DNA from: Eledone cirrhosa
Taxonomy: Eukaryota
Direction of reading: 5' to 3'
Length of the DNA stretch: 64,000 nucleotides
NCBI GenBank assembly: GCA_964016885.1
Contig: OZ024743.1
Location: 331,080,001 to 331,144,000 of the forward strand
Under the pieces are notes generated by a model. It was not told the DNA's origin. It worked only from the letters and a program-made list of their open reading frames with translations, and did not search any database. Within the stretch, counting starts at the first letter, position 1. Each line of letters begins with the position of its first letter. A program made the position numbers and the translations under genes. Positions 14,557-61,790 of the stretch are shown here, piece by piece.

Positions 14557-17018
14557 ATATACATATATATATATACATAAATATATATATATGTATATAC
14601 ATATAAATATATACATATACAGCAGTAACAGCAGCAACAGCAGCAACAGCAGTAACAGCAGTAACAGCAGCAGCAGTAACAGCAGCAGCAGTAACAGCAG
14701 TAACAGCAGCAACAGCAATAGCAGTAACAGCAGTAACAGCAGCAATAGCAGTAACAGCAGCTACAGCAGTAACAGCAGTAACAGCAGCAATAGCAGTAAC
14801 AGCAGCAATAGCAGTAACAGCAGCAACAGCAGTAACAGCGGTAACAGCAGCTACAGCAGTAACAGCAGTAACAGCAGCAATAGCAGTAACAGCAGTAACA
14901 GCAGCTACAGCAGTAACAGCAGCAATAGCAGTAACAGCAGTAACAGCAGTAACAGCAGCTACAGCAGTAACAGCAGCAATAGCAGTAACAGCAGTAACAG
15001 CAGTAACAGCAGTAACAGCAGCAATAGCAGTAACAGCAGTAACAGCAGCTACAGCAGTAACAGCAGCAACAGCAGTAACAGCAGCAACAGCAGTAACAGC
15101 AGCAATAGCAGTAACAGCAGTAACAGCAGCAATAGCAGTAACAGCAGCTACAGCAGTAACAGCAGTAACAGCAGCAACAGCAATAGCAGTAACAGCAGTA
15201 ACAGCAGTAACAGCAGCAACAGCAGCAACAGCAGTAACAGCAGTAACAGCAGCTACAGCAGTAACAGCAGTAACAGCAGTAACATCAGCAATAGCAGTAA
15301 CAGCAGCTACAGCAGTAACAGCAGTAACAGCAGCAATAGCAGTAACAGCAGCTACAGCAGTAACAGCAGCAACAGCAGTAACAGCAGCAACAGCAGTAAC
15401 AGCAGTAACAGCAGCAACAGCAGTAACAGCAGCAATAGCAGTAACAGCAGCAACAGCAGTAACAGCAGTAACAGCAGCAATAGCAGTAACAGCAGCTACA
15501 GCAGTAACAGCAGTAACAGCAGCAATAGCAGTAACAGCAGCAACAGCAGCAACAGCAGTAACAGCAGCAACAGCAGTAACAGCAGTAACAGCAGCAATAG
15601 CAGTAACAGCAGCAATAGCAGTAACAGCAGCAATAGCAGTAACAGCAGTAACAGCAGCTACAGCAGTAACAGCAGCAATAGCAGTAACAGCAGTAACAGC
15701 AGCTACAGCAGTAACAGCAGCAACAGCAGTAACAGCAGTAACAGCAGCTACAGCAGCTACAGCAGCAGCAGCAGCAACAGCAGTAACAGCAGTAACAGCA
15801 GCTACAGCAGTAACAGCAGCTACAGCAGTAACAGCAGCAACAGCAGTAACAGCAGCAACAGCAATAGCAGTAACAGCAGCTACAGCAGTAACAGCAGTAA
15901 CAGCAGTAGCAGCAGCTACAGCAGTAACAGCAGCAATAGCAGCAGTAACAGCAGCTACAGCAGTAACAGCAGTAACAGCAGCAATAGCAGTAACAGCAGT
16001 AACAGCAGCTACAGCAGTAACAGCAGTAACAGCAGCAACAGCAGTAACAGCAGCAACAGCAGCAACAGCAGTAACAGCAGCAACAGCAATAGCAGCTACA
16101 ACAGTAACAGCAGCAACAGCAGCTACAGCAGTAACAGCTGTAACAGCAGCAATAGCAGTAACAGCAGCTACAGCAGTAACAGCAGTAACAGCAGCAATAG
16201 CAGTAACAGCAGCTACAGCAGTAACAGCAGTAACAGCAGCAATAGCAGTAACAGCAGCAATAGCAGTAACAGCAGCAACAGCAGTAACAGCGGTAACAGC
16301 AGCTACAGCAGTAACAGCAGTAACAGCAGCAATAGCAGTAACAGCAGTAACAGCAGCTACAGCAGTAACAGCAGCAATAGCAGTAACAGCAGTAACAGCA
16401 GCTACAGCAGTAACAGCAGCAACATCAGTAACAGCAGTAACAGCAGCTACAGCAGCAGCAGCAACAGCAGTAACAGCAGCAATAGCAGTAACAGCAGCTA
16501 CAGCAGTAACAGCAGTAACAGCAGCTACAGCAGTAACAGCAGTAACAGCAGCAACAGCAATAGCAGTAACAGCAGCTACAGCAGTAACAGCAGTAACAGC
16601 AGTAACAGCAGCTACAGCAGTAACAGCAGCAATAGCAGCAGTAACAGCAGCTACAGCAGTAACAGCAGCAGCAGTAACAGCAGTAACAGCAGCAATAGCA
16701 GTAACAGCAGCTACAGCAGTAACAGCAGTAACAGCAGTAACAGCAGCTACAGCAGTAATAGCAGTAACAGCAATAGCAGTAACAGCAGCTACAGCAGTAA
16801 TAGCAGTAACAGCAATAGCAGTAACAGCAGCAACAGCAGTAACAGCAGTAACAGCAGTAACAGCAGCAGCAGTAACAGCAGCAGCAGTAACAGCAGTAAC
16901 AGCAGCAACAGCAATAGCAGTAACAGCAGCAACAGCAGTAACAGCAGTAATAGCAGTAACAGCAGCTACAGCAGTAACAGCAGTAACAGCAGCAACAGCA
17001 GTAACAGCAGCAATAGCA
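10925..17018. repeat. Two blocks of AGC-AGT-AAC (9-bp) satellite, 10925-14296 and 14618-17018
   Basis: Trimer-phased repeat; each block is followed by the same ~135-bp unique tail and a TA-rich microsatellite. Confidence 0.95.
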
Positions 17019-45210: not shown

Positions 45211-45343
45211 AAGGGATATTTAATTTGTTGGTGATTCAACAAATATATATGTTTATAACTGATTCAAAGCACTCGACAGATTTTCTGGAGTATAATATCA
45301 ATGATATTTATAAATGGAAACTATATTTATAAAACCATATTTA

Positions 45344-45400
45344 TTCTATTATATATATTTCAAGGGAACCAAAACTCTGGTACGCTCTCATCAGATAAAA
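45344..45400 (-). ncRNA. Decayed HHR
   Basis: ttttat-CTGATGA-gagcgtacca(gagttt)tggttccctt-GAAA-tatata-TA^atagaa; two mismatches in stem II. Confidence 0.55.
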
Positions 45401-46433
45401 TACAAAGTTTTAACAGTTCAAGTTTTACCTGGTAAAACTTGAACTGTTAAAATCTCGTTCCTAGATATGTTAATATTTATAAGACAAACTTTATAGTTTC
45501 CATTTATTAATATCACTGATATATATATATATATATACTAATTAGATAGTCATGGCTATTTCTGAAAACGAGACCCAAGAAGACCTGGGATGAGGTGATA
45601 AAAGCCGACCTTACCCAATTACACCTCAAAGGCGATGATGACACATGACCGTGACCTCTGGCATCACGCAGTAATACAGAGTACCCGACCTCCCATGGGT
45701 ACAAGCTGAAGCATAAAGACAATATGCCCCCACACACTCCCACTGCAAGGTGGTCGTGGAGGTGCCACAGCAAAAAAGCACCCAGCCCACACTGTAAAGT
45801 GAACATGTAGGCGCCACGGAAAAAAGCACCCAGCACTCACTGTAAATGAGGTTGGTGTTAGGAAGGGCATCCAGCTGTAGAAATCAAGCCAAAATCAGTT
45901 CCCGTATGAGCAAGGCATGGTCAGCCGACCAGACGCTGCCCACAACAGGACAACGCATCTAACCCATGCTAGCATGGAAGAACGGACATAAAACGGTGAT
46001 GATGATGATGATGATGATACTTATATCTAAAAAATCAAACAAACCAAAACTATAGTTTATTTTGTATGAACTAATTTCTTACCATTGTGTATTGTAAAGT
46101 TGTGTGTGGGTATATATATATTTATATATATATATATATATAAAAACAAATAACGAAACGAAATTAAATTTCGTTTCGTTTGTAACTCACTTTTGTATGA
46201 CTGACGCTTAAACAATTAAGTTAAAAATGTACATCCACATATGTATACTGAAATACTAGTATGCATATGAATACACACACGTGTACATATGTAGATGTAC
46301 CGAGTTTTTCACTGGACACTTTACTGTGAGTGTTCAGCTATTCTGTATGTAAACACACAGACAAACCGGTTTTTAGAGTCATACTGGTTTTCGAGGAAAC
46401 ACCTTTCCTCTATTCTCCAGAAAGCCAGACAGG

Positions 46434-46478
46434 AATATTGGACTAGTTTCGATGTTGTTACATCTCATCAGCAATATT
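46434..46478 (-). ncRNA. Minimal type I hammerhead ribozyme, intact (inverted copy)
   Basis: Exact reverse complement of 47044-47088. Confidence 0.85.
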
Positions 46479-47043
46479 TACCTATCCTCCGGCCTTTCTA
46501 GAGAATCGTAAAAGCACATATCGTTATATGCCTTTTCTATGAAAATTAGTAGTGGGCAGACTAATTTGCATAGAGCGTGAGTACGTACCGGTTCAGCGGA
46601 GACGATAAAAACAAATAACGAAACGAAATTAAATTTCGTTTCGTTTGTAACTCACTTTTGTATGACTGACGCTTAAACAATTAAGTTAAAAATATACATC
46701 CACATATGTATACTGAAATACTAGTATGCATATGAATACACACACGTGTACATATGTAGATGTACCGAGTTTTTCACTGGACACTTTACTGTGAGTGTTC
46801 AGCTATTCTGTATGTAAACACACAGACAAACCGGTTTTTAGAGTCATACCGGTTTTTAGAGTCATACTGGTTTACAAACGAAACGAAATTTAATTTTGTT
46901 TCGTTATTTGTTTTTATCGTCTCCGCTGAACCGGTACGTACTCACGCTCTATGCAAATTAGTCTGCCCACTACTAATTTTCATAGAAAAGGCATATAACG
47001 ATATGTGCTTTTACGATTCTCTAGAAAGACCGGAGGATAGGTA

Positions 47044-47088
47044 AATATTGCTGATGAGATGTAACAACATCGAAACTAGTCCAATATT
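47044..47088 (+). ncRNA. Minimal type I hammerhead ribozyme, intact
   Basis: aatattg-CTGATGA-gatgt(aaca)acatc-GAAA-ctag-TC^caatatt: 7-bp stem I, 5-bp stem II, palindromic stem III, GUC site. Confidence 0.85.
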
Positions 47089-47346
47089 CCTGTCTGGCTT
47101 TCTGGAGAATAGAGGAAAGGTGTTTCCTCGAAAACCAGTATGACTCTAAAAACCGGTTTGTCTGTGTGTTTACATACAGAATAGCTGAACACTCACAGTA
47201 AAGTGTCCAGTGAAAAACTCGGTACATCTACATATGTACACGTGTGTGTATTCATATGCATACTAGTATTTCAGTATACATATGTGGATGTACATTTTTA
47301 AATTAATTATATATATATATATATATATACATTTATATATATATAC

Positions 47347-47380
<34 letters not shown>

Positions 47381-47532
47381 ATACTTTGGGAGGGTCATGT
47401 TGCCAATAAGAAACACACGCACCAGTTGCTTTCACTTCAATTTATTATAATAAATTTATAATAAATTTATAAATTTATAAATTTCTGGTTGGTTGGTTGG
47501 TTGGTTCCACAACCAGATAGTTGTTTATATAT

Positions 47533-47577
47533 AGTCATAGTTCTTTCGTCACACACTCTGTGACCTCTTCAGTGACT
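47533..47577 (-). ncRNA. Minimal HHR variant (extra G after CUGAAGA)
   Basis: agtca-CTGAAGA-g-gtcaca(gagtg)tgtgac-GAAA-gaac-TA^tgact. Confidence 0.65.
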
Positions 47578-47734
47578 GGGGATTCCTTTCTTTGTTTCTG
47601 TGCCTCTCCTCTGTTCTGTCCTACGCCATTTTGTTTCTGTTTCTTATTGGCAACATGACCCTCCCAAAGTATAACAATATCGGTTTCAACACACGATTTC
47701 AGATAAAGAATCTTGCTAAACAAATTCAGAAACG

Positions 47735-47769
<35 letters not shown>

Positions 47770-61209: not shown

Positions 61210-61790
61210 GCTGTGCACCTTAGAGAGACTGTGCATCTATGCACCTTAGAGAGACTGTACATCTGTGCACCTTAGAGAGACTGTACATCTGTTCACCTTA
61301 GATAGACTGTACATCTGTTTACCTTAGAGAGACTGTACATCTGTGCACCTTAGATAGACTGTACATCTGTTTACCTCAGAGAGACAGTACATCTGTTTAC
61401 CTCAGAGAGACTGTACATTTGTGCACCTTAGAGAGACTGTACATCTGTGCACCTTAGAGAGACTGTACATCTGTTTACCTTAGAGAGACTGTACATCTGT
61501 TTACCTTAGAGAGACTGTACATCTGTGCACCTTAGAGGGACTGTAGATATGTTCACCTTAGATAAACTGTACATCTGTTTACCTTAGAGAGACTGTACAT
61601 GTGTGCACCTTAGAGAGAGACTGTACATCTGTTTACCTTAGAGACTGTACATCTGTGCACCTTAGAGAGACTGTACATCTGTTCACCTTAGAGTGACTGT
61701 ACATCTGTTCACCTTAGAGTGACTGTACATCTGTTCACCTTAAGGGGACTGTACATCTGTTTACCTTAGAGAGACTGTGCACCTTAAAGG
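61210..61790. repeat. 26-bp minisatellite
   Basis: ctgtacatctgtgcaccttagagaga units. Confidence 0.92.

Follow-up and report, generated by a model that had tools for sequence, protein, structure and literature searches.

Introduction

The locus at 46140-47308 of the window (the whole 64,000-nt stretch of Eledone cirrhosa DNA that was analysed) raises the question of what kind of element carries a hammerhead ribozyme (HHR) in each of two opposed arms, and by which machinery such a repeat is copied. Non-LTR retrozymes are known (PMC7229834), and Penelope-like elements (PLEs) were put forward as mobilisers of retrozymes on the basis of co-occurrence and similarity to pseudo-LTRs, or pLTRs (PMC7229834; bioRxiv 2026.07.22.740005). 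The latter work argues for a PLE origin of retrozymes and calls the mechanism open. The sequence-only reading of this locus offered retrozyme and PLE as alternatives. The results presented here indicate that the repeat is in all probability a non-autonomous HHR element mobilised by PLEs, and that the retrozyme insertions themselves carry the full PLE signature.

Results

The window copy starts with a unit of 465 bp, which is followed by a partial repeat of 252 bp and by an inverted arm of about 437 bp, all located between two (TA)n tracts identified by TRF (46111-46142 and 47308-47376). The tandem plus fold-back layout and the insertion in (TA)n, both claimed in the sequence-only reading, were thus recovered, the two outer ends abutting the tracts; target-site duplications are unreadable within (TA)n. 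The full unit (46140-46604, minus strand, GC content 36.8%) has its outer end at unit position 1, referred to as site A. It is followed by a 5'-truncated inner portion (46605-46856, minus strand), a copy of unit positions 1-252 with 2 mismatches, and the left arm therefore amounts to 1.54 units, with its RNA sense on the minus strand and directed outward. The inverted right arm (46872-47308, plus strand) carries unit positions 46 to 1 and then 465 to 75, thereby spanning the unit junction, and contains 2 internal mismatches (46897 and 47029). Its RNA sense is the plus strand, and its outer end lies at unit position 75, within what is referred to below as site B. The inner junction (46830-46873) consists of an 18-bp slippage duplication and a 2-nt overlap of the arms. 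The PLE-type 'tail', the 69-74 nt between sites A and B, is present in one arm only (46140-46213, minus strand). A hairpin with a 13-bp stem is located in the tail (46152-46180, also at 46617-46645 and 46877-46905) and a GAGGAAA/TTTCCTC hairpin at 46393-46410, so that both hairpins described earlier are present. The absence of protein coding likewise held, the longest stop-free frame of the window copy being 94 codons.

A type I HHR is found in each arm, at 46419-46489 (minus strand) and 47033-47103 (plus strand), on the grounds of covariation and of Rfam HH9 matches that reach 34.2 bits (E 7.6e-6 each) and lie under the gathering score of 52. Cleavage is predicted after GUC at 47081/47082, with its mirror at 46441/46440 in the left arm. 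In the ribozyme, helix I measures 7 bp, is bulged and extends distally, helix II measures 5 bp, and the palindromic helix III is 1-2 bp long. Because these helices fit the definitions in PMC4209133, where 'canonical' metazoan type I HHRs are distinguished from 'minimal' ones, the form is canonical; the claim of a perfect minimal type I HHR per arm was correct as to type and presence and wrong as to the minimal form. The short palindromic helix III predicts that cleavage would depend on dimers. Among 15 HHRs from this family and a sister family described below, 86% of cells are paired and 9 of 23 pairs are changed on both sides. Most of this covariation goes back to a single split, that between the two related families; an A-U to U-A swap in helix II also occurs within the retrozyme family. 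Folded as a circle, the unit reaches -149 kcal/mol, compared with -96 +/- 5.6 for 60 shuffles (z -9.6). The window copy contains one HHR per arm, without two consecutive intact HHRs, and is therefore probably no source of circles; it is probably a dead-end product.

The exact 31-nt HHR core occurs 2,600 times in the genome and its reversed control 0 times, and the HHR repeat of the window is therefore not due to chance. Moreover, (TA)n joined to unit position 1 (A ends) was found 2,088 times genome-wide, with 0 control matches. A search of the 3.0-Gb genome with the unit gave 875 candidates, of which 40 were scored, yielding 187 matches; the 150 matches listed are 95-100% identical. The family thus comprises at least 2,000 recent copies, in agreement with the earlier description of a young family, and the genome-wide search for tandem arrays revealed thousands of further copies. 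The longest arrays contain about 32 HHR units and no ORF, and no LTR architecture was seen by eye. Retrozymes with two or more consecutive intact HHRs are termed 'active' in bioRxiv 2026.07.22.740005, where only 1 of 9 Xenopus retrozyme dimers was cleaved in vitro, a result that weighs against the mechanism proposed below. Two consecutive intact HHR cores are present here in 30 of 59 loci, within the 6-10 kb taken per locus. A sister family, whose repeats measure about 450-470 nt, can be aligned over the full unit at about 70% identity and includes both old and very young copies (L034:1-4250, L045:6300-10000, L109, L110, L171). Before site A its young subfamily has T4 runs, whereas T6-T8 runs are found in the older copies. 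Family variants also occur in four of six contig runs of unknown kind, with TA-joined A ends in X1; single low-depth contigs of unit length in two other organisms may be cross-contamination, and these contig data were left out of account. At L229:1-640 a retrozyme array adjoins a tandem U1 gene cluster.

The ends of the insertions follow a rule. In the 38 loci nearest the window copy, they cluster at unit position 1 (site A) or at positions 69-75 (site B), and neither A+A nor B+B arm pairs were seen by eye among these loci. A sample independent of similarity was obtained from the first 63 A-end matches on contig C1 in order of position; one long array, one match inside another region and one locus already among those examined were left out, 60 were taken and one duplicate was dropped, giving 59 loci. 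Three of these ran off the stretch. The other end of the remaining 56 was an inverted B arm in 34 cases, a B stub in 5, TA without B in 12 and other DNA in 5; 39 loci thus end in B and 0 of 56 in a second A. By eye, two further A-end loci are B ends. The genome-wide number of B ends (about 1,350, that is 675 on the strand free of overlap inflation, doubled) against 2,088 A ends fits the sampled end ratio. All two-strand loci among the first 100 HHR matches are head-to-head. The median divergence is 0.9% between the arms of one locus (56 loci) and 1.0% between units within an arm, compared with 7.8% between loci, and the arms of one locus therefore derive from the same or sibling templates. Arm lengths range from 21 to 7,278 bp with truncated inner ends, the inner junctions are enriched at the tail hairpin (13 of 68 against 5.3 expected, p=0.002), and the ends show 1-3 nt of A/T pairing to the target.

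These observations change the meaning of the fold-back. It had been correctly recognised, but it is not peculiar to this copy: it is the rule of the family and the known inverted-arm-plus-tail signature of PLEs (PMC8557442; PMC3846280). 'Retrozyme' and 'PLE' are therefore not alternatives. The permuted ends, in turn, are neither random nor placed at the HHR cut, and fall at the two fixed sites. In vitro, both strands are cut and extended by a PLE protein, which initiates at two sites, one on either side of the tail (PMC11167929), and one DNA end may accordingly prime at A and the other at B. An alternative for head-to-head arms, self-priming on an antisense template, is given in PMC3846280.

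The arms also carry information on the template. Among 68 arms, 53 span an HHR cut site and 20 span two or more; in the two-arm loci at least one cut site lies within 27 of the 34 A arms and 26 of the 34 B arms. The pile-up of inner ends at the HHR cut is not significant (5 of 68, p=0.085), and there is no excess at the predicted transcription start (1 of 68). Because the arms cross cut sites without significant pile-up, the template would be a circle or an uncleaved multimer, and a linear cleaved monomer is disfavoured on the same grounds. The earlier suggestion of reverse transcription from circular or multimeric RNA thus gains support. Circles are favoured by the 260 singletons among 306 within-locus variants and by an array of 11 identical units; in 3 of 37 multi-unit loci the units show no differences at all. 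Long arrays, however, contain higher-order repeats of 3, 4 and 6 units, and polymorphisms recur in both members of a few locus pairs; arrays alone are for this reason no proof of rolling-circle copying. It is proposed that some long arrays grew later by block duplication.

A motif conserved between the retrozyme and sister families, overlooked in the sequence-only reading, led to a comparison with host snRNA genes. Five host genes (three U6 loci, independent of one another, together with the best U6atac gene and RNase MRP) carry an element of U6 type at -77 to -79 and a TATA box at about -30, 47-49 nt past the element. Most other examined U6/U6atac matches are without the element and look like retrocopies. 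With a matrix built from the 5 host genes only (leave-one-out scores 12.3-21.7), the retrozyme scores 20.5 bits and the sister family 20.1 bits. In a scan of 2.72 million positions, 307 of 308 matches at the retrozyme's score fall in the two retrozyme families. The one remaining match is probably due to a separate repeat family with a near-match to the element, seen at L041:5900-6000 and, in L212, at -275 of a U6 copy. In the window copy, the element reads TATGCAAATTAGTCTGCC in the right arm (46950-46967, plus strand, 20.5 bits) and is followed after 44 nt by a TATA-like box (46994-46999, plus strand); the left arm carries the element at 46555-46572 and the mirrored TATA-like box at 46523-46528, both on the minus strand. 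The spacing of 44 and 43 nt in the two families is 3-6 nt shorter than in all 5 host genes. A transcription start is predicted near 47024-47028, where the extended helix I has its 5' edge.

Several features bear on which polymerase would use this motif. The RNA strand of the unit contains two T5 and two T4 runs, older copies of the sister family were copied through T6 or longer runs, and the terminators of host U6 and U6atac genes are T6-T11. Pol III would therefore have to read through T runs inside the unit, T5 here and T6 or longer in the old sister copies. Neither retrozyme family has the distal motif that lies at about -260 in 11 of the 12 host snRNA upstream regions. A U1/U2-type promoter was rejected, since the proximal motif of host U1/U2 genes (TCAGT, at about -58) is absent from the unit, its best score (-3.1) being equal to the shuffle median. 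A reading as octamer plus downstream PSE was dropped in favour of the U6-type, PSE-like element, which includes an octamer-like core. On the strength of these comparisons the promoter is somewhat more probably functional than not, and its use by Pol III specifically is somewhat less probable than not. In the host, U1/U2 (Pol II) and U6/U6atac/MRP (Pol III) genes have different proximal motifs and a common distal motif at about -260 (L185-L233, L234, L242). Several of the U6/U6atac retrocopies (L213-L218 and L235-L241) are directly preceded by (TA)n, which suggests that snRNAs are copied by the PLE machinery as well.

GIY-YIG PLEs abound in the genome (10,596 candidates, 150 scored) and are of Neptune-like and Hydra types by their motifs. 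One young PLE has RWK, DKT and CxCX5C motifs and many open frames of 781 aa. As pieces of its protein gave no significant match in Pfam or PDB, the assignment to the Hydra clade rests on the motifs described in PMC8557442. This PLE ends in (TA)n at two fixed sites, separated by about 107 nt, its two-arm copies are paired A+B (20 loci, read by eye), and its A end reads TTTTAT, like that of the retrozyme. Several Hydra-clade families are present (L033:5420-9112, L149-L184), two of them with many intact frames of 778-784 aa; the one in L033 combines a tail of about 107 nt with an HHR-like core of non-canonical form. An ORF with the retrozyme unit as its pLTR was found in 0 of the 97 loci inspected, out of at least 2,000, so that the check for linkage to RT/GIY-YIG ORFs speaks for a retrozyme rather than an ordinary pLTR. 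The unit also shows no similarity to the pLTR or ORF-start regions of 8 among the many resident PLE families (z no higher than 0.8), the sister family giving z 6.0 as a positive control. A by-eye impression of homology between the site-A region and the Hydra ORF-start region was unsupported (z 0.1). Chimeric loci join the retrozyme to the Hydra family (L033, L055), to two Neptune-like families (L059, L290) and to another family (L043), and the chimeras carry other pLTRs. They were rejected as proof of a helper, because at least 4 families are involved and later insertion with deletion also explains them. Judged by the signature of the insertions, the helper would be a PLE; the young Hydra PLE is the leading candidate, tentatively and with the balance of probability against it.

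Other repeats surround the window copy. The right TA tract of the retrozyme copy is also used by a small fold-back at 47373-47736, which is a copy of a different PLE pseudo-LTR with 43-bp inverted arms; it has its own HHR-like core (minus strand, near 47540-47580) and a tail of about 55-60 nt, and its pLTR is also found after a C-terminal GIY-YIG ORF in L059. Further hammerhead-like cores from other repeat families are located at 45335-45412 (minus strand), 50652 (plus strand) and 60875 (minus strand), and long tandem repeats at 595-2124 (81-bp period), 10928-17018 (9-bp) and 61211-61778 (26-bp).

Discussion

What the sequence shows is a repeat family with an HHR fold, a promoter-like motif, arms placed head-to-head and the two fixed ends A and B. 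Taken together, these features are best accounted for by a non-LTR retrozyme that likely produces a self-cleaving RNA by way of the U6-type motif and is likely copied by PLE machinery into (TA)n, a mechanism that as a whole is considered reasonably probable. In arrays of at least two units, the promoter would fire just upstream of an HHR, and some transcripts would reach the next HHR. The paired HHRs would excise 465-nt monomers, which a host ligase would close into circles with the promoter sequence included. A PLE RT-GIY-YIG protein, probably dimeric, would then cut both strands of a (TA)n tract, and each DNA end would prime reverse transcription by 1-3 nt of A/T pairing, one at A and the second on the far side of the hairpin, at B, which lies about 70 nt upstream. 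Each cDNA would run for a variable length round the circle or along a multimer, and the inner ends would finally be joined.

The main competitor retains the PLE and dispenses with the circle. The repeat would be a passenger copied from linear, uncleaved Pol II read-through multimers, with the HHR and the U6-like motif serving another step or being passengers as well. In vitro, HHR cleavage proved unnecessary for PLE activity and unprocessed RNA was the main substrate (PMC11167929), and newt satellite 2 uses a snRNA-type Pol II promoter (cited in PMC2220036). The T5/T6 runs and the shifted TATA box also speak against simple Pol III transcription, and the higher-order repeats and common polymorphisms of the arrays are a further point in favour of this reading. 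However, both HHR pairing and the promoter-like motif have been kept across two families that are only about 70% identical, the variants within arrays are mostly singletons and some arrays are identical, related retrozymes form abundant circles (PMC7229834), and the proximal motif of host U1/U2 genes is missing from the unit. Copying from linear multimers is therefore held to be unlikely, though it is the most serious of the rivals.

Two other explanations would remove the retrozyme altogether. The unit could be the terminal repeat of an autonomous PLE and the loci its 5'-truncated copies, as the inversion, the tail and the (TA)n target are hallmarks of PLEs, L033 joins a retrozyme arm to a full Hydra PLE, and retrozyme-pLTR homology has been reported in 24 of 57 Xenopus families (bioRxiv 2026.07.22.740005). 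A rare parent element would fit an inspection that covered 97 of at least 2,000 loci. This ordinary pseudo-LTR reading is nevertheless very unlikely in view of the pure unit arrays of up to about 32 HHR units without an ORF, the unrelated pLTR that the PLE in L033 has of its own, and the canonical rather than minimal form of the HHR. Spread at the DNA level, as a satellite or a fold-back/MITE-like element moved by recombination or a DNA transposase, would suit the inverted terminal arms and the block duplications in long arrays. It is the least probable explanation, scarcely credible for an element whose two termini differ (A and B), whose arms are truncated at the inner end and anywhere between 21 and 7,278 bp long, whose conserved features are RNA structures, and whose architecture is the same as that of autonomous PLEs in the same genome.

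Within the preferred reading, a PLE-copied retrozyme with a U6-type motif, a more specific proposal can be made. Type 3 Pol III promoters lie outside the transcript and are normally lost on retrotransposition. The repeat could act as a circle factory made of a U6 promoter and tandem ribozymes, in which a captured promoter of this type is kept by circularising and is inserted by a dimeric PLE enzyme via double target-primed reverse transcription, the two DNA strands being primed on opposite sides of an RNA hairpin. Engineered U6-plus-ribozyme circle vectors resemble the retrozyme layout. This proposal is speculative and rather improbable as it stands; if true, it would explain the inverted-arm-plus-tail structure of PLE insertions generally. 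As for the mobiliser of animal retrozymes, the insertions themselves bear the PLE signature at thousands of sites. As for the origin of PLE inversions and tails, the rule of one A and one B end, found in the passenger and in an autonomous PLE of Hydra type alike, predicts that the two ends of a single break prime asymmetrically. Both questions become testable with a 465-nt substrate, and, should such repeats be strongly transcribed, the U6-type motif supplies a specific explanation. In a literature search covering few subscription journals, no retrozyme paired with a U6-type element and no counted A/B end rule was found.

The family resembles metazoan non-LTR retrozymes in its non-coding tandem units, each of which carries a canonical type I HHR, its low GC content, its dispersal from monomers to multimers and its coexistence with PLEs. 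It differs from retrozymes as described in the available parts of PMC7229834 and bioRxiv 2026.07.22.740005 in its fixed A/B ends, head-to-head arms, (TA)n targeting and promoter motif, and, unlike the Xenopus retrozymes reported there with pLTR homology, it has no pLTR homologue among the 8 PLE families compared. In common with PLE insertions (PMC3846280; PMC8557442), it has a partial tandem, a head-to-head inverted arm and a tail on one end, and the (TA)n target is common to the retrozyme and to Hydra, Naiad and Neptune PLEs. Unlike PLEs as presented in these sources, the retrozyme is without an ORF, its tail measures 69-74 nt instead of 30-40, and its pairing to the target is short and of A/T type; the rule of one A and one B end, set against the PLE insertions in this literature, is counted here (39 to 0). 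The non-autonomous Chlamys elements (MRC1; PMC8557442) are likewise non-coding PLE dependants with multicopy head-to-tail insertions, but at the 3' end they are similar to their helper, and canonical HHRs are described as mostly missing from their clade. The closest parallel in layout is offered by Schistosoma SMalpha and newt satellite 2, in which a promoter is followed by an HHR in each tandem unit (via PMC6765202 and PMC2220036), an arrangement in which the upstream unit transcribes the next. According to these accounts, SMalpha is SINE-like and transcribed by Pol III, and newt satellite 2 has a snRNA-type Pol II promoter. The same order of promoter motif and HHR is found in the present unit, but here the motif matches the element of the host's own U6, U6atac and MRP genes and not its U1/U2 motif.
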